The notes: generated from the sequence alone by a model not told the origin. A DNA stretch of 64,000 nucleotides from Acidimicrobiia bacterium (GCA_035464675.1 DATHSA010000081.1:32100-96099); one strand, 5' to 3'; numbered from the stretch's first letter, positions 2,819 to 58,040 are shown. Translations and numbers: made by a program.

Positions 2819-4006
2819 CTACACGACGCCGAGCGATCTCCCGACGGTCGCGAATGCATCGATGCAGCGGTCGAGGTCTGCATCCGAGTGCGCAGCCGAC
2901 ACCATCGCCCGGATCCGCGCAGTGCCCCGTGGCACGGTCGGGTAGGCGATCGCCTGGGCGAACACCGCAGCGTCGTCGAACAGGCGCCGGGAGAACTCCT
3001 GGGCCAGTGCCTCCTCCCCGAGGATCACCGGGGTGATGGGGGTCTGGGTGTGGCCGGTGTCGAAGCCGAGTGCGTTCATGCCGTCCCGGAAACGCTCGGC
3101 GTTCGACCAGAGGCGATCGACCAGCGTCGTCGACTCCTCGAGCACGTCGACCGCAGCGATGCACGCCGCGGCATCGGCGGGCGTGACCGCAGACGAGAAG
3201 AGGAACGGGCGGGCGCGCTGCCTCAGCCACTCGACGAGAACGGCCGGTCCGGCGACATAGCCACCCATCACGCCGAAGGCCTTCGACATGGTCCCCACCT
3301 CGACATGGACGCGGCCGTGGAGGCCGAAGTGGTCGACGATCCCTCGCCCGCCTTCCCCGAGGACACCCTCGCCGTGGGCGTCGTCGACCATGACGATCGC
3401 GTCGCGTCGTTCCGCAACGTCGACGATCGCGTCGAGGGGGGCGATGTCGCCGTCCATCGAGAAGACACCGTCGGTGATCACGAGCACCCGGTCGGCGCCC
3501 TCGCTCCGAGCCTCCCCGAGCACGGTGTCGAGGTGATCGGCATCCCCGTGCCGATACACGTACCGCGTCGCCTTGCAGAGGCGCACTCCGTCGACGATCG
3601 ATGCATGGTTGAGGGCGTCCGACACCACCGCGTCGCCCTCTCCGACGAGTGCTGGAATCGTGCCGAGGTTCGCCACGAACCCCGACTGCAGCGAAATGGC
3701 GGCTTCGACACCCTTGAAGGCTGCCAGCCGTGTTTCCAGCTCCGTGTGGATGGTCATGGTTCCGGCGATGGTCCGGACAGCCCCCGGCCCGACGCCATGG
3801 TCGTCCAGCGCCTTCTTTGCGGCGGTGATCAGCCGCGGATCGTTGGCCAGGCCGAGGTAGTTGTTGGAGCAGAAGTTCAGAACCTCGCGCCCGTCGATCT
3901 CCAGCTCTGCACCCTGCGGACCGGCTATCTGGCGGATCGTCGTGAACAGGCCCTGGCCGCGCAGGTCTGCCAGTTCACCCTCGAGGAATTCGAGCGGATC
4001 GCTCAC
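2819..4006 (-). CDS. kbl: glycine C-acetyltransferase (2-amino-3-ketobutyrate CoA ligase)
   Basis: Class II aminotransferase / alpha-oxoamine synthase motifs (TMSKAFG PLP-lysine region). Directly downstream of tdh. GTG start (VSDPLEF) overlaps tdh stop (GTGA). Confidence 0.85.
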
Positions 4007-34380: not shown

Positions 34381-35307
34381 TCACCCGTACCGCTCCAGAA
34401 TTCGCCGTCGAAGGTCGCGAGCCGCCTCGGCGACCTCGGAACCCTCCACGATGGACCCGGCACCTCCCAGACGAAGCACCAGGCGGGCGGGCGTGGCCGT
34501 ATCCCCGGAGGAGAAGTCGATCACCTTCCGTCCGTTCTCCTCGGACACCACGGAGACCGGGTAGTAGTCGGCGACCCATGTGGCCTCGGGCGCCAGATCC
34601 AGGCGCACCGTCACGTCGTCGACGCCAGGCGTGTACCGGATCTCGGGCGCCGGCGGCACGTCGGGAGGGCTGAAGCGCTCCCCTGTCGGCCGCGCGGCGC
34701 GGATGCGATCGATACGGAAGACCCGTTCGGCGCCCGCGAGGCGACAGTGGCCGGTCACGTACCAGTTCCCGAGTGTCGCCGACACCGCCCAGGGTTCGAT
34801 GTCCCGGTCGGTGGTCTCGCCCGATCCGATGGCGGTGTAGGTGATGGCGACCACTTCGCCGGCCGCGGCGGCGCGCCGGAAGAGGTCGAGAGTGTCGGGT
34901 TCGGCCGCAAGGTCGACCTCCACCGCACCTTCGTCCGGCACCACGACCTGCTGCAACTTCGCCACCGCGCTCTCCAGAGCGGGAGGCGCCGCCCCCGACG
35001 ACATCACCGCGAGTCCTGAGGCCAGCAGCATCAGAGCTTCGGTGGCGGTGAGGCGCACAGGGCGAGCGAAGTAGTCGGCCATGTCGACGATCACCTCGTC
35101 TTCGTCGACGAACGCCTCCATGAGATCGCCGGGGCCGTAGCCAGGGAGGCCGCAGACGAAGACGAGGTTGAGATCCTTCATCAAGTCGTCGCGTGAGTAG
35201 CCGAACCGTTTGCAGACCTCTTCGATCGTGGCCCCGGGGTTGGCGATCACCCAGGGGAGCATCGAAAGGATCCGGGTGAGGCGCTCGGCGGTGCGAGGGC
35301 TGCTCAC
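34381..35307 (-). CDS. pafC: proteasome accessory factor PafC (HTH plus WYL domain)
   Basis: N-terminal wHTH, central WYL-like domain; overlaps pafB by 4 nt. Confidence 0.8.
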   Translation of the reverse strand: MSSPRTAERLTRILSMLPWVIANPGATIEEVCKRFGYSRDDLMKDLNLVFVCGLPGYGPGDLMEAFVDEDEVIVDMADYFARPVRLTATEALMLLASGLAVMSSGAAPPALESAVAKLQQVVVPDEGAVEVDLAAEPDTLDLFRRAAAAGEVVAITYTAIGSGETTDRDIEPWAVSATLGNWYVTGHCRLAGAERVFRIDRIRAARPTGERFSPPDVPPAPEIRYTPGVDDVTVRLDLAPEATWVADYYPVSVVSEENGRKVIDFSSGDTATPARLVLRLGGAGSIVEGSEVAEAARDLRRRILERYG

Positions 35308-36248
35308 AGGGCTCCCTCGACGTGCGTGACGAACCGATCACGCAGCTCCTGAGGCTCCAGGATCTCTGCGGCGTCCTCGAAGCCGATCATCCAGCCCACG
35401 AACGCGTCGGGACTCGCCACCGGGAAGGTCGCTTCGATCGAACCATCAGGGGATTCCTCGATGGTCGCCGACGACGACAGTTGGCGTCTGGCCCACCACG
35501 CGATGTCCGCGTCGAAGTGCACCTTTGCCATGATGTCCTGCTCTCCGGCCTCCCAGGGAGCGTCGGGGAAGTCGTCCGATGCCCGGAAGCCCGGTGGGCG
35601 CTCGAAGGCGCCGGGGTCGCCGGCCGAGATCGCCGACATGCGGTCGACTCGAAAGGTACGGCGCTCCCTGCCGATCTGCCCGACCACGTACCAATGCCCC
35701 ATGCGGTGCACGAGGCCCCAAGGGCGCAACTCACGCTTCAGGTCGCGGTACTGGAAGCGCAGGACCCGGCGCTCGGTGACGCCGCGGAACACCTCTGCGA
35801 GAGCCTCGGCTCCGGCGCCCAGGTCGGCGGCCAGCGGATCCCCCGTGGCGGCGATCGAGACACCACCGAGTTTGAAGAGCGCTCCTGGGCCAGGGGCCTG
35901 GCCACCGAGCCGGACCATGCGCGTCGCCAGCCACAGGGCCGCTCTCTCCTCGTCGGTCAGCCCCGGATCGGGTAGGGAGTATTGATCGGGGGAGACGACA
36001 TAGCCCTGCTCCACCTCCCAGGCGTCGGTGTGTTCGAGATGGAGCGGCACCCCCAGTTGCCGCAGCAGGTCCTTGTCGCGCTCGAACGTGCGCCGGAATG
36101 CCTCGTCCGTCTCCTGGTCGTATCCGGCCACCGTGTTGCGGATCTCCTCCGCGGTCACCGGCCGACCCACCGTGAGGAGGAATGCCAGAAGGTTCAGGAT
36201 GCGCTCGATCACCCGGTGCATTGCCCTGGACTGTATCGACGCGGCCAC
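35304..36248 (-). CDS. pafB: proteasome accessory factor PafB (HTH plus WYL domain)
   Basis: Paralogous to PafC; located between pafA and pafC. Confidence 0.8.
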   Translation of the reverse strand: MAASIQSRAMHRVIERILNLLAFLLTVGRPVTAEEIRNTVAGYDQETDEAFRRTFERDKDLLRQLGVPLHLEHTDAWEVEQGYVVSPDQYSLPDPGLTDEERAALWLATRMVRLGGQAPGPGALFKLGGVSIAATGDPLAADLGAGAEALAEVFRGVTERRVLRFQYRDLKRELRPWGLVHRMGHWYVVGQIGRERRTFRVDRMSAISAGDPGAFERPPGFRASDDFPDAPWEAGEQDIMAKVHFDADIAWWARRQLSSSATIEESPDGSIEATFPVASPDAFVGWMIGFEDAAEILEPQELRDRFVTHVEGAL

Positions 36249-36297
36249 AACGGCGGAAGGAGCCGGGTCCGGCCCTACCGGTGGCGATCGTCGCGTC

Positions 36298-37653
36298 CTA
36301 CAGGCTGGCGATCAGCTTCTCGACCCGCTCGTCGACGGCGCGGAACGGGTCCTTGCAGAGGACCGTGCGTTGGGCCTGGTCGTTGAGTTTGAGGTGGACC
36401 CAGTCGACGGTGAAGTCACGGTTGCGGGCCTTGGCCGCCTTGATGAAGTCGCCGCGTAGGCGGGCCCGCGTCGTCTGTGGGGGGTCCAGCAGAGCGCGGT
36501 CGATGTCCTGGTCCGTGACGATCCGTTCCATCAGCCCCTTGCGCTCCAGGAGGTAGTAGAGGCCGCGCTCCCGGGTGACGTCGTGATAGGCGAGGTCGAG
36601 AAGCGACAGGCGCGGATCGCTCAGGGCAAGCCCTCTGCTGGCACCGTACTCCTCGATGAGGTGGTATTTCGCCACCCAGTCGCACTCCCGCCGGAGCGTG
36701 AGCGGGTCCTTCTCGAGCCCGGTGAGGAGGTGCTCCCACATCTGGACGGCGCTCTGCACCTGTGGCGGGAATCCGGTCGTACGGGCATACCGGATGACCC
36801 GTTCGAGGTACTCCCATTGCATGTCGAGCGCCGACAGTTCCCGGCCATTGGCGAGGCGGACCTTTCGACGGCAGGTGATGTCGTGGCTGATCTCGCGGAT
36901 GGCGCGGATCGGGTTCTCGAGCGTGAGGTCACGGAACACGACATCGTTCTCGAGCATCTGGAGGATCGCCACGGTGGCGCCGACCTTCACGTACGAGACG
37001 TACTCGGACATGTTCGAATCGCCGGCGATGACGTGGAGCCGCCGGTACCTCTCGGCGTCGGCGTGGGGCTCGTCACGGGTGTTGATGATCGGACGGCTGC
37101 GGGTGGTCGCCGAGGACACTCCTTCCCAGATGTGCTCGGCGCGCTGCGCCAATGAGAACACGGTCCCCCGCGCGGTCTGCAGCAACTTGCCGGCGCCGCT
37201 GAAGATCTGGCGGCTCACGAAGAACGGGATCAGGGTGTCGATCATGCGCTGGAAGTCCGCCTGTCTGCTGACCAGGTAGTTCTCGTGGCAGCCGTAGGAA
37301 TTGCCGGCCGAGTCGGTGTTGTTCTTGAAGAGGTAGACCGTGCCCCGGATGCCCTCCTCCTCGAGCCGCTGCTCGGCCGAGTGGAGCAGCCCTTCGAGCA
37401 CCCGCTCCCCCGCCTTGTCGTGGGCGATCAGGTCGTACAGCGAGTCGCACTCCGGGGTGGCGTACTCCGGGTGGCTTCCCACATCGAGGTAGAGCCGGGC
37501 TCCGTTTTCGAGGAACACGTTCGATGAGCGGCCCCACGAGACGACCCGGCGGAACAGGTACCGGGCGACCTCGTCTGGAGACAGGCGGCGTTGGCCGCGC
37601 AGGGTGCAGGTGACCCCGTACTCGTTCTCCATGCCGAAGATGCGCCGTTCCAT
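36298..37653 (-). CDS. pafA: Pup--protein ligase
   Basis: 451 aa; FGMENEYG N-terminus; glutamine-synthetase-like fold paralogous to Dop. Confidence 0.9.
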
Positions 37654-37680
37654 CGCGGGCGAGGGTACCCGGGAAGAGGG

Positions 37681-37756
37681 TTTCCCGTTACCCGTTACCC
37701 GTTGCCCGACCGCGTCGAACGGACACGGGAAACGGGTAACGGGAAACGGGTAACGG
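37681..37756 (-). repeat. heptad-hairpin element C
   Basis: tttcccgttacccgttacccgttgccc [loop] cgggaaacgggtaacgggaaacgggtaacgg; ends 5 nt after the stop of 37761..38120. Confidence 0.75.
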
Positions 37757-37760
37757 ATCC

Positions 37761-38120
37761 TCAGAACACGCGCATCAGTGCGCGGATCACCGCTGCGGCG
37801 AGGACCAGGGCCATGATCCCGGCGATGACCCGCATCGGGAGGTTGAGCGGGTTGGCGACGGCACCGCCTCTGACGGCCGGACTGAGCGTGTGGTCGATCT
37901 CCGAGATGGTGAGGATCTGGGCGGCGTCCTCGAGGTCCTCGACGTCGACCCAGATCTCGGTCACCGCCATCTCGCCGATCGTCATCTTGTAGGGCCCGAG
38001 GGCCTCACCGTGAAGACGGGTCGAAATGCCCGACGACTCGAGCAACGCCGCAGCGACACGCGCCGCAGCTGCGTCGCCAAAGCGAGCGAGCGAGACCATG
38101 CGGGTGGCCCGGGGTTCCAC
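37761..38120 (-). CDS. DUF2007-like small protein with C-terminal TM helix
   Basis: N-terminal 70 aa resemble the putative signal-transducing DUF2007 fold; C-terminal hydrophobic helix. Start may be M8. Confidence 0.45.
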
Positions 38121-38166
38121 GGGAGAAGGGTATCGCCGATCCCGATCAGTGAGGTCCCCTCAGAAT

Positions 38167-38280
38167 CGTCGCCCGACGCCAGTTGCCCGGCGCCCGTCGA
38201 GTCACGGCGTGCCCGCCCGGGGGTCCATGGTGGGGGTCATCCTTCGGCCCGGTGGAGTTCAGACGGGCGGCGGGCGACCG
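38167..38280 (-). repeat. heptad-hairpin element E (degenerate copy)
   Basis: gtcgcccgacgcc...gcgcccgtcgag [loop] cagacgggcggcgggcgaccg; right arm ends 1 nt before the prcA stop. Confidence 0.5.
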
Positions 38281-38281
38281 A

Positions 38282-38950
38282 TCAGGCGGCCTCGATCTCC
38301 TCGTCCGTGAGCCTGCGGAAGGCGCGTCGGCCCAGGCTGCGGTCGAGGACTGCCGCCTCCCATCCCGTGACGCCGTTCTCGGCGACGGCCGTGCAAGCGG
38401 CCTTCGCCCACCCGAGCGCATCGGCAAGAGAGCCACCCTCCGAGTACGAGGAGTCGAGATGCGCCACCAGGTCATCGGCGGAGCCGCCGATCGCAGAGAG
38501 GCGCGTCTCCTCGTAGAGGGTGCCGTCGTAGGTGACGCGGTAGATGTGGCTCTGTTCATCCGCGTCGCCGATTTCGACGACCATCACCTCCACCTCGAAG
38601 GGCTTCACATCCTGCGTGAAGACGTGTCCGAGGGTCTGGGCATAGGCATTCGCGAGGCTCTTGGCCGTGACATCGTCGCGGGAATACGCGTACCCGGTCA
38701 GGTCGGCGCGGCGGATGCCGCCGACTCTGAGCTGTTCGAACTCCGTGTACTTCCCGACGCCGGCAAACGCGATGTGGTCGTAGATCTCCGAGATCTTCTG
38801 GAGGGTCCCGCTGGGGTTCTCGCCGAGCAACACGACCCCGTCGGCGAACTCCACGGCAACGATCGACTTGCCTCGGGCGATCCCCTTCCGCGCGTACTCT
38901 GCCCGGTCCTTCATCAGCTGCTCGGGCGGTACATAGAACGGGATGGTCAC
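38282..38950 (-). CDS. prcA: proteasome subunit alpha
   Basis: Alpha-subunit N-terminus (TIPFYVPPEQLMKDRAEYARKGIARGKS) and 20S fold. Confidence 0.9.
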   Translation of the reverse strand: MTIPFYVPPEQLMKDRAEYARKGIARGKSIVAVEFADGVVLLGENPSGTLQKISEIYDHIAFAGVGKYTEFEQLRVGGIRRADLTGYAYSRDDVTAKSLANAYAQTLGHVFTQDVKPFEVEVMVVEIGDADEQSHIYRVTYDGTLYEETRLSAIGGSADDLVAHLDSSYSEGGSLADALGWAKAACTAVAENGVTGWEAAVLDRSLGRRAFRRLTDEEIEAA

Positions 38951-39729
38951 GGGGCCTCCACCACGTCCCGGGCGGTCTCGGCAACCTGCTCCTCAGGGAG
39001 CTCTGAATAGCCCTCCGATGAGACGGTGACGATGTTCGGGTAGATGCCGCGCTTGAGGTCCGGGCCGCCGGTCGCGGTGTCGTCCTCGGCGACGGCCACC
39101 AGTGCCTCGACGGCGAGCTTCAGCGCGGCCTCCTGGGTCATCCCGTCCGTGAATTTGGTGCGCAGGTAGAGACGGGCGTCGCGGCCTCCGGACCCGGTGG
39201 CGGCGTAGTCCATCTCCTCGTACGAGCCTCCGACGACGTCGTAGGAGTAGAGGCGACCCTGCTCCTCCTGCTCGTCGTAGCCGCAGAAGAGCGGGATGAC
39301 GACGAGGCCCTGGAACGCCATGGGAAGGTGGCGGCGCACCATCGAGGCGAGATGATTGGCTTTTCCCTGAAGGCTGAGGCGCCGCCCCTCGATCTTCTCG
39401 TAGTGCTCCAACTCGGTCTGGAAGAGGCGGACCAGCTCGATGGCGATTCCCGCCGTCCCCGAGATCGCCACTGCCGAGTGGGAGTCCGCCGCGTAGACCT
39501 TCTGGATTCGACGATGGGCCACGTAGTTGCCCGCGGTGGCTCGTCGATCTCCAGCCATGAGGACGCCGTGGGCGTACCGGAAGGCCAGGACGGTGGTGCC
39601 TTCGGGTGCCTCGATCTCTCCGTTCGCCTCCCAGCGCGGGTCGAGATCACGGACGCGGAGCAGCGCAGAGAACGAGTTGGCCGGCGTCCCCGCTTCGAGG
39701 ACCAGGCCGTCGTCGCTCGGCTGGGTCAC
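38947..39729 (-). CDS. prcB: proteasome subunit beta (with propeptide)
   Basis: Propeptide followed by catalytic Thr (EGTTVLAF). Confidence 0.9.
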   Translation of the reverse strand: MTQPSDDGLVLEAGTPANSFSALLRVRDLDPRWEANGEIEAPEGTTVLAFRYAHGVLMAGDRRATAGNYVAHRRIQKVYAADSHSAVAISGTAGIAIELVRLFQTELEHYEKIEGRRLSLQGKANHLASMVRRHLPMAFQGLVVIPLFCGYDEQEEQGRLYSYDVVGGSYEEMDYAATGSGGRDARLYLRTKFTDGMTQEAALKLAVEALVAVAEDDTATGGPDLKRGIYPNIVTVSSEGYSELPEEQVAETARDVVEAP

Positions 39730-39920
39730 TGGCCGCCCTTCTGGACGTAGTTCTTGACGAACTCCTCGGCGTTCTCCTCGAGGACGGAGTCGATCTCGTC
39801 GAGAAGATCGTCGATCTTGTCGGTCAGCTCGTCACCGACCTCGGTCGCAACGTCCTGATCCTCGTCGACCTCACGGTCGGAGTCGTCACGACGGGTCTTC
39901 TTCCGTTCCTGATCGGCCAT
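39726..39920 (-). CDS. pup: prokaryotic ubiquitin-like protein Pup
   Basis: 64 aa from MADQERKK, ending ...FVKNYVQKGGQ (C-terminal GGQ). Confidence 0.85.
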   Translation of the reverse strand: MADQERKKTRRDDSDREVDEDQDVATEVGDELTDKIDDLLDEIDSVLEENAEEFVKNYVQKGGQ

Positions 39921-41400
39921 CTTCACCTCCGAGTGCCCGGACGAGATCGGCGGGGGTGGGTGATCCATCGAGGAGGTCGGCCACCCGGTCCTTGTCCCCG
40001 CGCAGGGGCTCCATCATAGGCACCCGTTTCAGGGCCTCCTCCCCCACGTCGAATATGAGGGAGTCCCAGTTCGCGGCGACGATCGCGTCGCCGAATCGCT
40101 CGACACACGACCCCCGGAAGTACGCCCTGGTTCGCTCCGGCGGAGCGACGGCAGCATGGTCGACCTCGTCGTCTGTGAAGAGACGCTGCATCCGGCCCGC
40201 CGACACCAGCCGGTGATACAGGCCACGGCTGCGATCGACGTCGTGATACTGCAGGTCGAGGAGCCGGAGCTTGGGGGCGTTCCACGGGAGTCCGTCGCGA
40301 CCCCGGTATCCCTCGAGCAGCGCCAGCTTGGCGGTCCAGTCCAGGCGATCGGCGGTCGACAACGGCTCGCGTTCCAGGTCGGTGAGCACCTGCTCCCAGG
40401 TCTCGAGAACCAGGCGGCCAGTGTCGTCCACCCCGTGGACCTCGGCGTACTTCGACACCCAGTCGAGGTAGTGCCACTGGAGCTCCAGGGCGGTCGCGTG
40501 TGACCCGTCGCCGAGTTCGACGGTTGCCTGGAGTGTCGGATCATGGCTCACCCGCCAGACCGAGTCGACGGGATGGGCGAGTTCGATCGGATCCCCGAGG
40601 GCGCCTGCCTCTATCGCCGACAGCAGCAGCGCCGTCGTGCCGACCTTGAGGAACGTCTGGGTCTCGCTGAGGTTGGCGTCTCCGATGATGACGTGGAGCC
40701 GGCGGTAGAGACCAGCATCGGCGTGGGGCTCGTCCCGGGTGTTGACGATGGGACGCTTGAGGGTGGTCTCGAGGCCGACCTCCTCCTCGAAGAAGTCGGC
40801 TCGCTGGGTGATCTGATAGTCGACGGCAGGGCGGCCGTTCTCGCTGCCGACCTTCCCCGATCCAGTGAAGATCTGGCGAGACACGAAGAATGGGATCAGG
40901 TGCCGTACCAGCTCGCCGAACGGCAGCCTGCGATCGACCAGGTAGTTCTCGTGGGCCCCATAGGAGTTGCCCTTGCCGTCGCTGTTGTTCTTGTGGATGT
41001 GGAGCCGCTGACCTTCGAGAAGGGAGCGTGAGGCGCTGCGGGCAGCCCGCTCCAACACGAACTCGCCGGCCTTGTCATAGAGCGCCGCCTCCAACGGGTC
41101 GTAGCACTCCGGCGTCGAGTATTCCGGGTGCGCATGGTCGACGTAGAGGCGGGCACCGTTGGTGAGCACCACGTTGACCAGGCCCGTCTCGAAATCCGCG
41201 GTCGGTGGCGGCTCGTAGCCGAAGCCCCGGGCGTCGCGACCGGGCGACTCCTCCTCGTACGACCACTGGATCCGTGTCGATGTGCCGGCGTAGGAGTTGA
41301 TGACGAGGCTCGAAGCCACGACCGGGTTGAAGTCGGGGTGATTGCTGATCGTGATTCCGAACTCGGTCTCCGTACCGACGACCTTGTGGATCTCGCTCAC
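39886..41400 (-). CDS. dop: Pup deamidase/depupylase
   Basis: 504 aa PafA paralog (GTETEFG N-terminus, Dop-specific insert); its 3' end overlaps the pup start by 35 nt. Confidence 0.9.
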
Positions 41401-43112
41401 AGGTACTGGCCGGTGGTGATGGCCTCGATGCTGCGACTCTCGCCGTCACCCTCGATCAGGGTTCGGACGTACACGATCCTTTCGCCCTTCTTGCCCGAGA
41501 TGCGGGCCCAGTCGTCCGGGTTCGTCGTGTTGGGCAGGTCCTCGTGCTCCCGGAACTCCTGCTTGATGGCGGCCAGGAGGTCGGCGGTGCGCACCCCGCG
41601 CTCCCCGGTCTCGATCTCGCGCTTGATCGCCTCCTTCTTGGCGCGGCGGACGACGTTCTCGATCATCGCCCCGGAGGCGAAGTCCTTGAAGAAGAGGACC
41701 TCCTTGTCCCCATTGGCGTACGTCACCTCGAGGAACCGGTTGTGCTCCGACGTCGAGTACATGTCGGTGACGACTTCTTCGATCATGGACTCGACCAGGG
41801 CGGATGCGTCCCCTCCGTGGCGTTCGACCTCGCCGACGTCCAGGGGGATGTCGGCGCCGAGATAGATGCGATAGACCTCCTTGGCGGCGTCCTGGTTGGG
41901 TCGCTCGATCTTGATCTTCACGTCGAGGCGGCCCGGGCGCAGGATGGCCGGGTCGATGAGGTCCTCGCGGTTGGATGCGCCGATCACGATCACGTTCTTG
42001 AGCGTCTCGACGCCGTCGAGCTCGGAGAGCAGCTGGGGAACGATCGTCGACTCGACGTCCGAGGAGATCCCACTTCCCCGGGTGCGGAACAGTGAATCCA
42101 TCTCGTCGAAGAAGACGATGACCGGCACACCCTCCTCCGACTTCTCCTTGGCGCGGGCGAAGATCAGCCGGATCTGGCGCTCGGTCTCACCGACGTACTT
42201 GTTGAGAAGCTCCGGGCCCTTGATGTTGAGGAAGTACGACCTCGAGTCCTCCTGGCCCGTCTTGGCCGCAACGGCCTTGGCCAGGGAGTTGGCGACGGCC
42301 TTGGCGATGAGGGTCTTCCCGCACCCGGGCGGGCCGTACAGGAGGACGCCTTTCGGCGCCGCGAGCCCGTACTCGTCGAAGAGCGCCTTGTGGACGTAGG
42401 GCAACTCGACGGCGTCGCGGATCGACTCGATCTGCTCGGTGAGTCCGCCGATGTTGTCGTAGGAGACATCGGGAACCTCCTCCAGGACCAGTTCTTCGAC
42501 CTCGGGGCGCACGAGTCGCTCATGGAGCAGGCCGGTCCTGGTGTCGAGGCGGACGTGGTCGCCGACTCGAATGAAGGTGTCGCTCATGGGACCGGCGAGT
42601 TCGACGACGCGCTCCTCGTCGGCGCGAGCCAGGACGATCACACGGCCGTCGCCGAGCACCTCCTTGACCGTGACGACCTCTCCGCCCTGCTCGAAGGCAC
42701 GGACGTCGATGACGTTCATGGCCTCATTGAGGAGTACCTCCTGGCCGGGCTCCAGCTCTTTGACCTCGATCGTCGGCTCGACGTTGACCCGGAGCTTGCG
42801 GCCGCCGGTGAGGACGTCCAGGGTGCCGTCCGCGTTGACTCCCTGCACGATTCCGAATGGATTGGGGGGCGCGGTGAGCTTCTCCACCTCGTCGCGGAGC
42901 ACCGCCAGTTGCTCGCGGGTCTCCTCGAGGGCAACGGACAGCTTCTCGTTCTGCGACATGGCCTGATTGACCCGGCCCTTGGCCTCGAGGAGCCTTTCTT
43001 CGAGCACGCGAACGCGACGCGGGGCGTCCTGGAGGCGCCGGCGGAGGATGGCTATCTCCTCCTCCAGCATCTTGATGGTGCCTCGGAGCTCGTCGACCGT
43101 GGGGTCGCTCAT
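41397..43112 (-). CDS. mpa: proteasome-associated AAA ATPase (Mpa/ARC)
   Basis: Coiled-coil N-terminus, OB domains, AAA+ core ([12 protein letters not shown]), C-terminal GQYL proteasome-docking motif. Confidence 0.92.
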
Positions 43113-43343
43113 GGCTCTTCGTCTCCCCGGCCGGGATCACCCGGCCTCTGACGACCTCGGACCGGGCGTACCCCGGTCCTTGCGCGGAGTATACGACGGG
43201 TTGCCCGAGAGACGGTTGCACAGGGCAGAAGGTCGACGGCCGCACCCCTGCGCGCTCTGCGGGTCTGGCCTTCGCCTGCTGCGGTCTCCATCTGCCTTGG
43301 CTGGAGTACCATCCCGTGGTCGGCTGCCACGGAGCATCACATC

Positions 43344-50829: not shown

Positions 50830-52182
50830 CTAGAGCCGGAAGCCGACCACCGCTCCGCCGCCCTCGGCTTCGTCCGCAAAGACGGTGCCGCCGTGATCAG
50901 CCACGACCGCCGCCACGATCGACAGCCCGAGGCCGGATCCCGGGGTGGTGCGGGCGGAGGACGAGCGATAGAACCTGTCGAAGACACGTGGCCGATCTTC
51001 CGCGGCGATGCCCGGGCCGCGGTCGCGAACCGCCAGCCGCCGACCGAGGAGCTCGACGTCGATCGGGCCCGCATCGCCGCCCCATTTGACGGCGTTGTCG
51101 ACGAGATTCCCGATGGCGCGCGACATGGCCCCGACTCGTGCCTCGATCGGCGTCGCTTCGAGGTTCATCGTGATGTCCGTGGTCGCCCGGCGACGGGCTC
51201 GGTCCACGACGCGGGTCACGAGGTCTGCGAGATCGATGGGTTCCATCGGCTCGTCCGACCTGCCGACCATCGCCAGTTCGACCAGTTCATCGACGATCGT
51301 CGACAACTCGATCAATTCGGCACGGGCGTCTTCGAGCACGCCCGGAAGCTCATCCCCCGGGATGGCGCCACGGGCCACGAGTTCGATGTTCGTGCGCAAG
51401 GCGGTCAGGGGTGTGCGGAGCTCATGGGACGCGTCGGCGACGAGGCGTCGTTGGCTCGCCCGCGCCTCCTCGAGCCCGGCCAGCATCGCGTTGAATGCCA
51501 TGGCCAACCTGCCGATCTCGTCGTCTCGATCCACCGGGATAGAGGCACGGAGGTCGTGCGTCTCCGATACGTTCTCCGCGGCTTCAGTGAGGGCTGCGAC
51601 CGGCTGCATCGCGCGCCGAGCAACCCACCATCCTGCGGACGCGGCAAGGAGGACCCCGGCGAGTCCCAGCAGTATCAGACGCGTGCGGAGTCCGGCCAGG
51701 AAGGTGGCGGTCTCGCCGAGGTCGCGAGCCACTTGCATTGCCACCCCGGGTGCGACCCGGGTGGTGAGCATCCGGTAGGACTGCCCTTCGACGTCGGCAT
51801 CGCGGAGAACCTCGCTGCGAACGCCCTGAGCCACGTCGCGATCGACGTCCTCCACCGGAAGGGCGATGTCGGAGTCGCCGACCCGGAGGACGGCCCCGGG
51901 GAGCACGAACTGAACGACGACGTCCTCTTCGATCAGCTGCCTGCCTGGCCCTGGCTCCTGCCCCTGCCTCCCGCCTGGCATCCTGCCCGGGAAGCGCCGG
52001 TTGATCTCCTCGATGTCGAGCACCTGCACGAAGCCGGCCGCAGCCCCCCGCCGCCGGAGGAACTCGTCGACCTCGCCACGCGCCCCATCTCGGGCCAGGG
52101 CATACGCCGCAATCGACACGACTGCGACGCCGATGGCAACGGCAGTCGCCACGAGCAGCGTGATCCGGGTGCGAAGACTCAT
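50830..52182 (-). CDS. sensor histidine kinase (HAMP-HisKA-HATPase; MprB/MtrB-like)
   Basis: Two TMs flanking a periplasmic loop, HAMP, H-box ASHELRTPL, and N/G1/G2 boxes ([25 protein letters not shown]). Confidence 0.85.
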
Positions 52183-52913
52183 GGCTCTCGAGCCACGTAC
52201 CCCACCCCGCGCACCGTGTGGATCAGCCGGGGCTCACCGCCCTCCTCGGTCTTTCGCCGCAGATAGCCGATATAGACGTCGAGGGAATTCGACGTCGTCT
52301 CGAAGTCGATGCCCCAGATCCTCTCGTAGATGAGGCCGCGCTCCAGCACGATCCGACGGTTCATCACCAGGAGCTCGAGGAGATCGAATTCGGTCTTGGT
52401 GAGGTCGATCCTTCGCTCGCCGCGGTAGGCGACCCTCGCGGCGGGGTCGATGGTCAGGTCGGCGAGAGTCAGCCGGTCGTGGTCGCCCTCGTCGAAGGTC
52501 GCCCGACGTAGCAGGGCGCGCACGCGTGCCAGCAGCTCCTCGAGGGCGAACGGCTTGACGAGGTAGTCGTCAGCCCCGGCGTCGAGCCCTGCGACCCTGT
52601 CGGACAGCTCATGACGGGCTGTCAGCATCAGGACAGGAGTCCGATCACCGCCTTCGCGCAGACGGCGACACACCTCCAGGCCGTCCATCACGGGCATCAT
52701 CACGTCCAAGACCAGGGCATCTGGTTGATCGCCGGCCATCGTCAGCAGGGTGGCTTGCCCGTCGCCGACGGTCTGCACCCGATAGCCCTCGAATCGAAGA
52801 GCCCGCTCGACTGCTCTTCGAACGGATTCGTCGTCCTCCGCAACCAGGATGCGCTCGCCCGTCACGCTGCGGAGCGTACCCCCACGCCCATGAAGGGACG
52901 ATGAGCCGCTCAT
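52179..52913 (-). CDS. OmpR-family response regulator
   Basis: Receiver domain (ILVAEDD, DVMMP, K) plus winged-helix trans_reg_C. ATGA overlap with the kinase gene. Alternative GTG start at 52865. Confidence 0.85.
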
Positions 52914-54069: not shown

Positions 54070-56139
54070 ATGGGTCTCGGACCGCTCGCTCGCATCCTCC
54101 TGGTCCTCGCACTGGCGGTGCCCGTCGTTTCTCTCGGCCCAGGGGAGGCGCGCGCCGAAGGCGACCTGGAGGTCGCCGCCAAGGTCACCTATACGGTCGA
54201 GGCCGAGTCTGGGGTGCTTCGCGTCGCCATCGAGTACACCCTCACGAACCTGAAGCCGAGCACCACCAGCGGGAACGTCACCACCCGCTACTACTACGAC
54301 CGCTACGCCCTGGTGATCCCCGACGAGGCGACCGATCTGATCGCAACCGGCCAATCCGGCTCGCTGCGCGTCACCGACGAGGTCGCCGAACTGGAGGATG
54401 GCTCCGAAGGCCGCGTGGCGACGATCCACATGGGGTCGATCTTCTACCGGCAGTCGCGAACCTTCACCTTCTCCTTCGGCATCCCCGGCGGGGAGCCGCG
54501 TTCGGCGGCCGGGGTGCGCGTCAACCCCGCGTACACGGCCTTCTGGGCCGGTGCATTCGGGGATCCAGACAAGTCCCAGGTCGAGATCCGCCTGCCGGCA
54601 GGCTTCGAGGTCAGCACGTACGGCGACTTCGTCGAGCGCACCGACACCGATGCGGAGATCATCCTCTCCGAGGACGACATCGCGGACCCGTACGAGTGGG
54701 GCGTCTTCGTCACCGGCCGTCGGGACGACGCTCTGGATGCGACGACCGTCGACCTAGGCGGTCTCGAGATCGAGGTGAAGGCCTGGCCCGGAGACACTCT
54801 CTGGTCGGATCGTGTCGCGGACGTCGCGGCGAGGGGCATGCCCGAGCTCCAGTCCATGGTCGGGCTGGAGTATCACGTCGACCAGCTGGCCTTCCTCGAG
54901 ACACTGGATCCGGCACTGGTCGGGTATGCCGGGTGGTATCTCGTCGGCGAGCACCGCATCGAAATGAGCGAGCATCTGGACGACCATGTGATCCTGCACG
55001 AACTCGCGCACCTCTGGTTCAACGAGGACCTGTTCATCGACCGGTGGATCAACGAGGGCCTGGCCGACACCTTCGCCGCCGAGGCGGTGATCGCGATCGA
55101 CGGCGAGTCGGATGATGCGTACTCGCGGGCGCTCATACCGGTCACCTCGCTGAGCATCGCCGTTCCTCTCAATGATTGGGACCTACCCGCCTCGTCCGAC
55201 GCGGACGACGACGAGATCCGGCGCCGTGAGGACTACGGGTACAACGCGTCGTTCTTCGTCGTGCGCGCTTTGTTCGAGGAGATCGGCCCGGAAGGACTCA
55301 GCGTCGTGCTGAAGACTGCCTCGGCCGACGAGATCGCATATCAGGGCAACGGCACCCCGGAGTCCGTCGATCCGCTCGACAGTTGGCGTCGCCTCCTCGA
55401 CATCCTCCAGGAGGTCGCGGGCTCCGACGAAGCAGAAGAGCTCTTCCGCACGTACGTCGTCGCCGAGCGGGACTTCGATCGTCTGGACGACCGGGCTGAG
55501 GCGAGAGATGCCTATCACGCCCATCGGGCAGCCGCCGGGGGTTGGGACACCCCTCTCGCGCTCCGGGAGCCCCTTGCAGAGTGGGAGTTCGACGACGCCC
55601 TCGCCGCGATCGATGCGGCGTCCGCCGTCCTCGAACTCAGCAGCCGGCTCCAGGCTCTGGCCGCAGGGCTGGGTCTGGATGCCCCCGACTCGGTCGAGCT
55701 CGCCTACGAGGCCGCCACCGATCTCGGCGGCCTCGACGACGCGTCTGCCCTGGCAGGCCTGCAGTTGGAGGCGTTGGAGCTGGTCTCGGAGGCACGAGCG
55801 GCCGTCGACGGGCAGAGGGGGTTCTTCGACAGGATCGGGTTGATCGGCCAGAACCCCGAGCTGGAGTGGTCGGAGGCGGCGGAGGCCTTCGAGGCAGAGG
55901 ACCTGGAGGGAGCGCGCGTCGAGGCCCGGGAGGCGATCGACATGCTGGCGAATGCGGCAGGCGTGGGGCGCCGCCGAGTGCTCTTCGCCGGCGCCGGTTT
56001 CGTCGGTTTCGCCCTGGTGACGACCGGTGGGGTCTGGCTCATTGCTCGCCGGCGGCGACCGCGTAGCGAGGGTGGGGATGCCGGGAGCGGGCTCAAAGTG
56101 GACGCCTCGGATGGCGACGGATCGGCCCCACTCCCCTGA
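54070..56139 (+). CDS. secreted/membrane-anchored putative zinc metallopeptidase (gluzincin-like, HELAH...NEGLA)
   Basis: Signal peptide MGLGPLARILLVLALAVPVVSLGPGEARA; HExxH at HVILHELAHLWF plus downstream NEGLAD Glu ligand (M1-like spacing); C-terminal TM VLFAGAGFVGFALVTTGGVWLIA. Confidence 0.6.
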   Translation: MGLGPLARILLVLALAVPVVSLGPGEARAEGDLEVAAKVTYTVEAESGVLRVAIEYTLTNLKPSTTSGNVTTRYYYDRYALVIPDEATDLIATGQSGSLRVTDEVAELEDGSEGRVATIHMGSIFYRQSRTFTFSFGIPGGEPRSAAGVRVNPAYTAFWAGAFGDPDKSQVEIRLPAGFEVSTYGDFVERTDTDAEIILSEDDIADPYEWGVFVTGRRDDALDATTVDLGGLEIEVKAWPGDTLWSDRVADVAARGMPELQSMVGLEYHVDQLAFLETLDPALVGYAGWYLVGEHRIEMSEHLDDHVILHELAHLWFNEDLFIDRWINEGLADTFAAEAVIAIDGESDDAYSRALIPVTSLSIAVPLNDWDLPASSDADDDEIRRREDYGYNASFFVVRALFEEIGPEGLSVVLKTASADEIAYQGNGTPESVDPLDSWRRLLDILQEVAGSDEAEELFRTYVVAERDFDRLDDRAEARDAYHAHRAAAGGWDTPLALREPLAEWEFDDALAAIDAASAVLELSSRLQALAAGLGLDAPDSVELAYEAATDLGGLDDASALAGLQLEALELVSEARAAVDGQRGFFDRIGLIGQNPELEWSEAAEAFEAEDLEGARVEAREAIDMLANAAGVGRRRVLFAGAGFVGFALVTTGGVWLIARRRRPRSEGGDAGSGLKVDASDGDGSAPLP

Positions 56140-56160
56140 GTCCCTGCCCTGTCCCGGCTG

Positions 56161-56220
56161 TCAGGTCAGGATGATGAGCAGGATGATGATGAGAATCAGC
56201 GTTCCGACTCCGATGTACAT
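56161..56220 (-). CDS. candidate 19-aa hydrophobic mini-protein
   Basis: MYIGVGTLILIIILLIILT; GGGAGA Shine-Dalgarno 4 nt upstream of the ATG. Lies in the divergent intergenic region with the PRC-barrel gene. Confidence 0.3.
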   Translation of the reverse strand: MYIGVGTLILIIILLIILT

Positions 56221-56286
56221 CGAGTCTCCCTTCGTGGTGGCGGCGCCCCGGGCCTTCCTCGATCGGCACCGGCGTAAACCTTCCAC

Positions 56287-56355
56287 GTTTGGCCCGTACC
56301 CCTCGCCGGGAACACTGAACATGTTTGGCCCGTACCCATCGCCGGGAACACTGAA
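56287..56355 (+). repeat. tandem direct repeat, two 33-nt units with 36-nt period (gtttggcccgtaccc[c/a]tcgccgggaacactgaa)
   Basis: Units at 56287-56319 and 56323-56355 differ at one position. Unit contains GGAAC and, 17 nt downstream, CGTACC (ECF-sigma -35/-10-like). Located 32 nt upstream of the PRC-barrel start. Confidence 0.7.
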
Positions 56356-56386
56356 GGGGACCGACCGCGACCAGGAGACCATTCAC

Positions 56387-56734
56387 ATGCAACCCAAGGT
56401 TCTCTCCGCACACACCCTCATGGGCGACTCCGTCCGCGATACGAAGGGTGAGCGCATGGGCGACCTCAAGGAACTCATGATCGACCTCGACAGCGGACGC
56501 ATTTCATATGCCGTTGTTTCGTTCGGGGGATTCCTCGGCCTGGGCGACAAGCTGTTCGCCATGCCATGGAATGTCCTTCGAGTCGACACCGAGAACCGCC
56601 AGATCGTGCTGGACGTCCCCAAGGAGACGCTCGAGAGCGCGCCGGGCTTCGACAAGTCCGACTGGCCGGACTCGGCCGAGCACTGGGGCCTCGTCGACAC
56701 CCATTGGGCCGACTACGGACGGCAGGCCGTCTGA
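56387..56734 (+). CDS. PRC-barrel domain protein
   Basis: 115 aa; AGGAGA SD 7 nt upstream; PRC barrel (GERMGDLKELMIDLDSGRISYAVVSFGG). Confidence 0.72.
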   Translation: MQPKVLSAHTLMGDSVRDTKGERMGDLKELMIDLDSGRISYAVVSFGGFLGLGDKLFAMPWNVLRVDTENRQIVLDVPKETLESAPGFDKSDWPDSAEHWGLVDTHWADYGRQAV

Positions 56735-56750
56735 ATCAGCCCATCCCATC

Positions 56751-56777
56751 GAGCCGCCCCGGACTCCGGGGCGGCTC
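56751..56777. terminator. bidirectional GC hairpin gagccgccccgg-act-ccggggcggctc between convergent genes
   Basis: 12-bp perfect stem, 3-nt loop; 17 nt after the PRC-barrel stop and 13 nt after the DEAD-box helicase stop. Confidence 0.6.
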
Positions 56778-56789
56778 GGCGCGGCAGAT

Positions 56790-58040
56790 TTAGCGGCGAC
56801 GGCGTCCCCGCCGGAACCGCCGTGAGATGTCGACGTCGGAGGTCGTCTTGGGTTCGACCTCGTCGGGCTCGAAGCCGACGAGGTCATCGAGGCGGTCGTC
56901 GTTGGAGAACATCTTCACGATCTCGTAGTTGAGGCCCGATGCCCTCTGAAGTCGTTCGACGTCCTCCACCTGGTCCCATTCGACGAGGGTGACCACCAGA
57001 CCGGTCTCGCCGGCCCTCGCGGTGCGTCCGGACCGATGGACGAAGCTCTTGTAGTCCTGCGGGGGGTCGAAGTGCAGGACCACGTCGACGTCGTCGATGT
57101 GGAGTCCGCGGGCAGCGATGTTCGTTGCCACGAGGGCCGGGAGCTTCCCTTCGGCGAAGTCGCCGAGCACACGCTCCCGGTCACGCTGCTGCTTGTCGCC
57201 GTGGATGGCGCGGGCGTCGACTCCCTCATCGTGGAGCTGGCGGGCCACCCGATCGGCGTTGGCCTTGGTCCCCACGAACACCAGCGTTCGCTCGACGCTG
57301 CCGATCACACGGGCGGCGACCTTTGCCTTGTCGCGGTAGTGGACCGAGATGAAGCGATGCGTCTGTTCCTCGACGATGTCGCTCTCGGTGATGACCTCGT
57401 GGCGGACAGGATCCCGCAGATAGGCATTGACCAGAGACCGGACCGCGCCGTCGAGGGTGGCCGAGAACAGCATCACCTGGGGTGTGCCCCCGACCGAGCG
57501 CATGATGGATCGGACCTGCGGGAGGAAGCCCATGTCGGCCATCTGATCGGCCTCGTCGAGGACGACGCAGTCGACCTGCCCGACGTCGACCGTCTTCCGC
57601 CGGATCAGGTCGATCAGGCGCCCGGGTGTGGCGACGACGATGTCTACGCCGTCGCGCAAGGCATCGATCTGGGGACCCATTGGCGCACCCCCATACACGG
57701 CGATGAGCGACCGGTCGGAGGCGACGGCCAGCGGCTGCAATTCCTCGGCGACCTGAAGGCACAGCTCGCGGGTCGGCACCAGGACGAGGGAGGCCGGCTG
57801 CCTGGAGACCGCCTTCCGGGTCCGCTGGATCAGCGGGATGCCGAACGCGAGGGACTTCCCCGAGCCCGTCTGGGCCTTCCCGCAGACATCGCGGCCTGCG
57901 AGACCGTCGGGGATCGTCATCGTCTGGATCGGGAATGGGGCGGTTATGCCCCGGTCGGCGAGTTGCCGGGTGATCTCGTCCGACACCCCGAGGTCTGTGA
58001 ACAGGGTGGTGGTGGTGGTGGTGATGGCAGTCTCCGTCAT
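56790..58040 (-). CDS. DEAD-box ATP-dependent RNA helicase
   Basis: Q motif, AQTGSGKS, PTRELC, DEAD, SAT, HRSGRTAR; basic C-terminal tail; N-terminal TTTTTT from (ACC)6. Confidence 0.9.
   Translation of the reverse strand: MTETAITTTTTTLFTDLGVSDEITRQLADRGITAPFPIQTMTIPDGLAGRDVCGKAQTGSGKSLAFGIPLIQRTRKAVSRQPASLVLVPTRELCLQVAEELQPLAVASDRSLIAVYGGAPMGPQIDALRDGVDIVVATPGRLIDLIRRKTVDVGQVDCVVLDEADQMADMGFLPQVRSIMRSVGGTPQVMLFSATLDGAVRSLVNAYLRDPVRHEVITESDIVEEQTHRFISVHYRDKAKVAARVIGSVERTLVFVGTKANADRVARQLHDEGVDARAIHGDKQQRDRERVLGDFAEGKLPALVATNIAARGLHIDDVDVVLHFDPPQDYKSFVHRSGRTARAGETGLVVTLVEWDQVEDVERLQRASGLNYEIVKMFSNDDRLDDLVGFEPDEVEPKTTSDVDISRRFRRGRRRR

Follow-up and report, generated by a model that had tools for sequence, protein, structure and literature searches.

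A 36-nt tandem repeat lies upstream of a PRC-barrel gene in a 64,000-nt stretch of Acidimicrobiia bacterium DNA (the whole of the analysed stretch is referred to here as the window). It raises the question of what has been duplicated, which protein would read the two copies and whether the gene is affected by having both. The initial annotation had proposed that a stress sigma factor of the ECF class recognizes a site that spans the junction of the two units.

The tandem repeat and its flanking genes

The two units of the repeat are at 56287-56319 (unit 1) and 56323-56355 (unit 2), an offset of 36 nt. Both 33-nt units have the sequence GTTTGGCCCGTACCC[C/A]TCGCCGGGAACACTGAA, and the sole mismatch between these cores is a C at 56302 versus an A at 56338. 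Tandem Repeats Finder identified the repeat at 56287-56355 with a period of 36, 1.9 copies, 96% matches and a score of 131, so that the sequence and the program together confirmed the annotated arrangement of two units that differ at one base and are spaced 36 nt apart. When the preceding CA-initial triplets (CAC/CAT) are included, the repeat can alternatively be read as 2 × 36 nt (56284-56355) with two mismatches. No further copy of the unit with up to three mismatches was found in the 64 kb (0/100 shuffles matched), and the 23-nt core of the repeat had no exact match in the metagenome contigs. A dispersed repeat or mobile element was ruled out on these two results, in the window and in the contigs, respectively.

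The gene downstream of the repeat (56387-56734, + strand) encodes a 115-aa PRC-barrel domain protein (PF05239, E=4.5e-18) and is preceded by a Shine-Dalgarno sequence, AGGAGA (56373-56378), 8 nt before the ATG; AGGAG is kept at this position in the alignment of relatives. The repeat is therefore in the promoter region of the PRC-barrel gene, as had been annotated. The same intergenic region is shared with a divergent 19-codon mini-ORF (56161-56220, − strand), also as described previously, which encodes the hydrophobic protein MYIGVGTLILIIILLIILT and has a Shine-Dalgarno sequence, AAGGGAG, at 56232-56226 as read from the sequence.

Comparison of the mini-ORF among relatives identified 13 distinct DNA versions, every one of which has 19 codons and an upstream Shine-Dalgarno sequence. 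Codon positions 1, 2 and 3 had 16, 2 and 17 variable columns, respectively; T, the base at the near-invariant second position, specifies hydrophobic residues. All versions share the N-terminus MYIG(I/V/L)G(T/G)L, with the exceptions of one V and one S variant. In addition, the mini-ORF always adjoins the PRC-barrel gene. It is divergent in the window, L002 and L081-L100 (e.g., L002 2800-2858, − strand), and co-directional and just upstream of the PRC-barrel gene in L014 (2892-2951, + strand), L024 and L025 (both 2896-2955, + strand) and L041 (2914-2973, + strand). Judged from its pattern of codon conservation, the mini-ORF is a real conserved gene for a predicted small membrane protein. It is unannotated, has the consensus MYIGxGTLxLIIILLIxLT and is preceded by its own Shine-Dalgarno sequence and SigB/SigF-type promoter. 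In L097 (543-545) the ortholog has ATA in place of the ATG; the codon may be a non-canonical start or a sequencing error, or the ortholog may be a pseudogene.

A protein search with the PRC-barrel protein identified relatives at 90, 83, 82, 79, 79, 72, 71 and 67% identity. There was no database record of the exact protein, and the closest relative, at 90% identity, has a diverged intergenic region. In the metagenome contigs that encode orthologs of 67-90% identity, and in two MAG loci described below, the genes are arranged as in the window. The two closest relatives, L081 and L084, share the order of the window: genes for a cNMP-binding protein, a glyoxalase and a ~710-aa protein, the divergent mini-ORF, the PRC-barrel gene and a convergent DEAD-box helicase gene. 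The flanking genes vary in more distant relatives, as L098 is without the large protein and L099 has other neighbors.

Eight distinct orthologous intergenic regions, from metagenome contigs and the MAG loci L001 and L002 (labeled "Actinomycetota bacterium" and "Acidimicrobiia bacterium", respectively, in the genome scan), were compared with the window. In the MAFFT alignment of these regions all eight relatives aligned to unit 1, and unit 2 was a 36-nt insertion relative to every one of them. The intergenic region of the window is 166 nt (130 + 36), versus 116-143 nt in the relatives. The repeat has the features of a slippage-type tandem duplication, namely head-to-tail, near-identical copies that are absent from relatives, and it is most simply explained by replication slippage.

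Predicted promoter boxes within the repeat and in orthologous regions

Each of the eight relatives has one + strand GTTT-N16-GG[G/A]TA[C/G] located 27-44 nt before the PRC-barrel ATG, and one − strand GTTT-N16/17 promoter located 29-35 nt before the mini-ORF start. The − strand −10 variants were GGGAAT, GGGAAG, GGGTAC and GGGTAT, and GGAAAT in L097. Mean column identity in the alignment of the nine distinct intergenic regions was 48%, and the invariant columns around the + strand promoter were exactly GTTT (56287-56290), G56308, G56309 and A56312. These last three correspond to G1, G2 and A5 of a −10 hexamer, whose G3 is an A in two of the eight relatives. The other invariant columns were toward the mini-ORF side, in the mirror-image promoter (the C in TTCC and the A in AAAC) and in the vicinity of the Shine-Dalgarno sequences and starts of the mini-ORF and the PRC-barrel gene.

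The back-to-back −35 boxes could be viewed as the arms of a fixed palindromic operator, CAAAC-N7-GTTTG. This candidate was ruled out based on the distance between the arms (CAAAC...GTTTG), which is 4-14 nt among the orthologs, and on the constant spacing of each arm to its GGG. Since the separation of the −35 boxes is variable while the −35/−10 spacing is steady at 16-17 nt, the constraint lies within each promoter and not on an operator.

Unit 1 of the window contains a GTTT at 56287-56290 and, after 17 nt, a GGGAAC at 56308-56313, and unit 2 contains the same boxes with the same spacing (GTTT at 56323-56326 and GGGAAC at 56344-56349). The only mismatch between the copies falls in the spacer, leaving the −35 and −10 boxes intact in both. 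We refer to these predicted + strand promoters as P1 (56287-56319) and P2 (56323-56355). GGGAAC was also found at the orthologous site in L001. A search of both strands of the 64 kb for GTTT-N15-17-GGGWAY matched only the two units, with 0.23 matches expected. We also trained a weight matrix, excluding the window, on a set of 35 promoters found in relatives (29 with N16 and 6 with N17). Among the 127,910 positions scored in the window, P2 ranked first (17.9 bits) and P1 second (17.8 bits), with the next best match at 14.2 bits.

In Actinomycetota and Firmicutes, group 3 sigma factors such as SigB and SigF direct the general stress response and are under the control of partner switching. The following features of the window agree with promoters of this type: the −35 GTTT is present in both units and invariant in all nine regions; the −10 of both units, GGGAAC, conforms to GGG(A/T)A(N); and the N17 spacing is within the GTTT-N14-19 range, at its long end, as most such promoters have N15-16. 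The position of the units just upstream of a gene start and their association with a stress regulon (see below) are also typical of this class. Based on these data, our preferred interpretation, to which we assign a probability of about 0.78, is that each unit is a complete SigB/SigF-type promoter and that the 36-bp duplication gives the PRC-barrel gene two intact tandem promoters. Since both units hold a GTTT and a GGGAAC box, the duplication would create P1 and P2, and the window would have two promoters where all eight relatives have one. The earlier suggestion that the duplication produced two sigma factor sites is retained in this form, with a putative GTTT-N17-GGGAAC site in each unit. 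A general-stress, SigB/SigF-like holoenzyme is the probable reader of the sites, as judged from the promoter sequences.

The −10 box of P1 is 73 nt from the PRC-barrel ATG and that of P2 is 37 nt, compared to 27-44 nt in the relatives. P1 retains the upstream surroundings of the ancestral promoter, with the mini-ORF promoter at its back, and P2 has kept the ancestral distance to the ATG. In the proposed sequence of events, the ancestral region would have had two promoters back to back, one for the PRC-barrel gene and one for the 19-aa mini-protein, and the 36-bp duplication would have added a second complete core promoter on the PRC side, from the −35 to just past the −10. Transcription from P1 is predicted to start near 56321 (about 56319-56323), giving a leader of ~66 nt, and that from P2 near 56357 (about 56355-56359), giving a leader of ~30 nt. 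For these predictions the distance from the −10 to the start was set at 6-10 nt, after the S. coelicolor promoter table (PMC8346170).

The mini-ORF promoter of the window is a degenerate, mirror-image SigB/SigF-type promoter (56254-56279, − strand), with a −35 GTTT at 56279-56276, an N16 spacer and a −10 AGGAAG at 56259-56254, where relatives have GGGAAT, GGGAAG, GGGTAC or GGGTAT. It ranked 8th of the 127,910 positions in the weight matrix search, with 10.8 bits. Neither member of the promoter pair still matches the consensus of the lineage, as the mini-ORF −10 has lost one G and the PRC side has N17 and is duplicated. With N17 in place of N16 and an A in place of T at the fourth −10 position, the promoters of the window may be weaker than the consensus. 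A scan of the intergenic region for sigma-70-type promoters and intrinsic terminators found neither. Pfam searches of 24 ORFs of the window identified no sigma or anti-sigma gene, including any for a SigB/SigF-type sigma factor, RsbW or RsbV, and a regular expression search of the window for sigma region 2 found no cognate sigma gene.

These box assignments differ from those of the initial annotation, in which an ECF-type promoter (SigE/SigH/EcfG-like) was placed across the junction, with a −35 GGAAC at 56309-56313, a −10 CGTACC at 56331-56336 and a start at 56340-56345. The pattern itself is present in the window, with 17 nt between GGAAC and the CGT at 56331-56333, and a PRC-barrel gene of the alphaproteobacterium Sphingomonas melonis is a direct target of EcfG through a GGAAC-N..-GTT promoter (PMC6599016). 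However, GGAAC-N17-CGT occurred five times in the window versus 3.24 expected, and 25 of 100 shuffles had five or more matches; since this is chance frequency, the motif match alone carries no weight. The proposed −10 would be CGTA, which is without the GTT core of the published GGAAC-N17-20-GTT (PMC6599016), and the pattern exists only through the duplication junction. None of the eight orthologous intergenic regions contained GGAAY-N15-19-CGT/GTT on the + strand. Further, the first A of GGAAC is a T in most relatives (GGGTAC, GGATAC and GGGTAG), and the conserved partner of the hexamer is the GTTT upstream of it, not the CGT downstream. We rejected the ECF promoter on the pattern statistics, the −10 sequence and the ortholog scan, and regard it as improbable.

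An alternative stress sigma factor is still the most likely reader of the region, as had been proposed, but its class would be SigB/SigF-type and not ECF, with GGAAC being part of a −10 GGGAAC. As GGAAC is the 3′ part of a −10 that pairs with an upstream GTTT, the predicted start moves, and the single start near 56340-56345 is replaced by the two predicted above. The correction of the promoter class thereby corrects both the predicted starts and the candidate sigma factor.

The motif in stress gene clusters and in known sigma factor systems

The same motif was found in more distant Acidimicrobiia. GTTT-N16/17-GGGTAY is present in 6-10 copies per 6.3-kb locus in L014, L041, L024 and L025, with most copies 22-38 nt before a Shine-Dalgarno sequence and start codon. 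The genes behind the motif in L041 encode CsbD (E=8.6e-17), DUF2383 (8.7e-21) and a Dps-like ferritin-domain protein (5.3e-22), as well as a baeRF-family protein and small membrane proteins. The mini-ORF and the PRC-barrel gene sit inside these clusters, behind one such promoter. From the identities of its members, the gene set behind the motif is recognizable as a putative general-stress regulon. Among 80 loci from many phyla, the motif was found upstream of PRC homologs only at Actinomycetota/Acidimicrobiia loci, and the link between the two is therefore lineage-specific. In the stress gene clusters of these four loci, nearly every gene has a GTTT-N16/17-GGGTAY promoter of its own, and another gene behind the cluster promoters encodes a 54-aa basic protein (MPVHR..KDxxGPYYQWG).

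Published promoters point the same way, as GTTT with GGG(A/T)A 15-17 nt further on is the consensus for stress sigma factors of the SigB/SigF family. In M. smegmatis, the SigF consensus is GTTT-N14-19-GGGTA, and many strongly SigF-dependent promoters have GTTT-N15/16-GGGAA (PMC4694148). SigB of B. subtilis has the consensus GTTTAA-N12-14-GGG(A/T)A(A/T); among the promoters of the nine SigB homologues of S. coelicolor, the GGG and A5 of the −10 are described as "almost invariant", and the SigB/SigF-dependent S. coelicolor promoter SCO5749p has the −10 GGGAAC (PMC8346170). The −10 positions that are invariant in our ortholog alignment (G1, G2 and A5) are among these published near-invariant positions.

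The window promoters resemble the SigF promoters of M. smegmatis and M. tuberculosis in having a −35 GTTT, a GGG-initial −10 with A5 and a spacer of 15-17 nt. The targets of SigF in those species are general-stress and stationary-phase genes, including one for a Dps-like protein, and the GGGAA variant is common where SigF dependence is strong. Unlike the mycobacterial system, the host here is an uncultured relative of Acidimicrobiia, the promoter is tandemly duplicated and the sigma factor is a predicted one. The window promoters likewise share the bipartite consensus of B. subtilis SigB and the S. coelicolor SigB homologues, in which GGGAAC is a functional −10. CsbD-family genes belong to the SigB regulon, and the CsbD gene of L041 has the same motif. 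In contrast to these two species, the window has 15 nt between its hexamers (GTTTGG-N15-GGGAAC), among the longest of the published spacings, and its scanned ORFs included no partner-switching genes. The similarity to the EcfG/SigE/SigH systems (GGAAC-N16-20-(C)GTT; PMC6599016) consists of the PRC-barrel gene being a stress-sigma target in Sphingomonas and of GGAAC being present in the window; the differences are that GGAAC in the window is inside the −10 of another class, has no correctly spaced GTT and is neither conserved nor enriched as an ECF pattern.

These comparisons suggest that uncultured Acidimicrobiia use a code, GTTT-N16-GGGTAY, that is like that of mycobacterial SigF or Bacillus SigB. 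The code precedes a general-stress set that comprises CsbD, Dps, DUF2383, PRC-barrel and the unannotated 19-aa membrane mini-protein, and it could be used for predicting stress regulons straight from metagenome-assembled genomes. In the literature collection searched, no paper dealt with sigma factors or the general stress response of Acidimicrobiia, nor did any address tandem promoter duplications. The locus is a new instance of two known kinds of element, the SigB/SigF-type promoter and the tandemly duplicated promoter. The more useful by-products of the analysis are the SigB-like code of the Acidimicrobiia with its stress clusters, and the pairing of the mini-protein with the PRC-barrel protein.

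Possible consequence of the duplication

Duplication of a promoter is an ordinary kind of cis-regulatory mutation and would not surprise a specialist. A familiar case is TR34, a 34-bp repeat in the cyp51A promoter of Aspergillus fumigatus, in which a tandem promoter duplication acts as a cis-regulatory mutation. The repeat in the window is similar in that a short head-to-tail promoter duplication provides one gene with twice as many upstream binding sites. It differs in that TR34 is eukaryotic and involves an enhancer-type site, whereas here the doubled element would be an entire core promoter, recognized by an alternative sigma factor of bacteria. The locus may thus serve as a clean natural example of the doubling of such a core promoter by a 36-bp slippage event.

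If P1 and P2 are both promoters, both copies would be expected to fire, and the stress-induced output of the PRC-barrel gene would be higher or altered. At a promoter spacing of 36 bp, RNA polymerase footprints overlap. As polymerases at P1 and P2 would therefore overlap, the effect need not be additive, and occlusion is as possible as addition. This consideration also bears on a different outcome, in which the duplication is neutral, recent slippage, with one copy functional (most likely P2), the other silent or occluded and no regulatory consequence. Such an outcome agrees with ours on the identity of the promoters and differs only on the consequence of doubling them. It is in keeping with the features of the repeat, whose 33-nt cores differ at a single base (2 of 36 when the flanking triplet is counted) and which is absent from all eight relatives. 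Set against this, both copies have an intact −35 and −10, their sole difference is in the spacer and, with the upstream context of P1 and the downstream context of P2 both ancestral, neither copy is obviously disabled. We consider a neutral outcome possible, but not the expected one. It is doubtful, at the other extreme, that the duplication is an adaptive cis-regulatory change that restored or raised stress-induced PRC-barrel expression and uncoupled it from that of the mini-protein. Given the drift of the PRC-side promoter (N17, GGGAAC) and the loss of one G from the GGG of the mini-ORF promoter, an adaptive doubling could compensate. A further possibility within the adaptive reading is that the junction hybrid, GGAAC-N17-CGT, adds a second, ECF-type input. 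Behind it there may be an undescribed, SigB-like general-stress regulon of the Acidimicrobiia with the 19-aa mini-protein and the PRC-barrel protein as its core.

Other explanations dispute that the units are promoters or that there are two of them. The units could be direct-repeat sites for a transcription factor, e.g., an OmpR-family response regulator or a cNMP-binding protein, as they are directly repeated between two divergent genes, with genes for both types of protein within 4 kb (the OmpR-family response regulator gene is at 52179-52901, − strand), and the cNMP-binding and glyoxalase genes are syntenic in relatives. OmpR-family sites, however, are typically direct repeats of 10-11 bp, unlike the 36-bp period here. 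Relatives also have just one copy of the unit, and conservation within it is limited to GTTT and GG.A and does not extend to the 16-17 nt between them. The occurrence of the bipartite motif before dozens of unrelated stress genes of Acidimicrobiia fits a sigma factor better than a local regulator, and we find factor sites very unlikely. A second copy created by an assembly or sequencing artefact is harder still to accept. Our comparison at the strain level found no relative in which the copy number of the repeat could be checked, yet the two copies are distinguished by one base, a tandem repeat of 72 nt is much shorter than a read and not the usual source of assembly errors, and the intergenic length minus 36 falls within that of the relatives, as it would for a genuine insertion. 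Least credible of all is that the repeat is a structured RNA of the 5′-UTR, such as a riboswitch, a thermometer or tandem hairpins. A weak hairpin (CCCG...CGGG) can be drawn by eye in each unit, but Rfam had no match at the repeat, either at the gathering score in the whole window or at E<=10 in 56000-56800, and both the unit pair and the P1 leader were predicted to fold less stably than shuffled sequences (z = +1.8 and +2.7). In addition, the spacer is unconserved in the alignment, with no sequence pattern suggesting a maintained stem, and unit 1 is upstream of any predicted start. A known cis-regulatory RNA family was rejected, as Rfam was without a match and the fold was not above chance stability.

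Several other features were observed in the window and its relatives. A hairpin at 56751-56777, between the convergent PRC-barrel and DEAD-box helicase genes, has a perfect 12-bp stem (GAGCCGCCCCGG-ACT-CCGGGGCGGCTC) and no T-run, and a similar one is present in L002 at ~3358-3387. The hairpin of the window is probably a bidirectional terminator, and weak chance Rfam matches at 56722-56800 arose because of this terminator-like structure downstream of the PRC-barrel gene. Just downstream of the mini-ORF in L086 (about 1451-1500) and L087-L095, there is a 7-nt microsatellite (GGTCGCA/AGTCGCA) of ~6 copies; its copy number differs between contigs (L086 vs. L087), and L093 has a point variant.

The fourth-best weight matrix match in the window, GTAT-N17-GGGTAC at 43164-43194 (− strand, 12.5 bits), is just upstream of an unannotated 579-aa ORF at 41397-43136 (− strand). 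The match may be due to chance, as its −35 is imperfect. Based on its position in a Pup-proteasome cluster, the 579-aa ORF may encode the proteasomal ATPase. The Pup-proteasome neighborhood spans 34381-43136, with genes for PafC-like HTH/WYL proteins, TatC and a TrmI methyltransferase nearby, and is consistent with an actinobacterial chromosome. The G+C content of the window is 67.8%.
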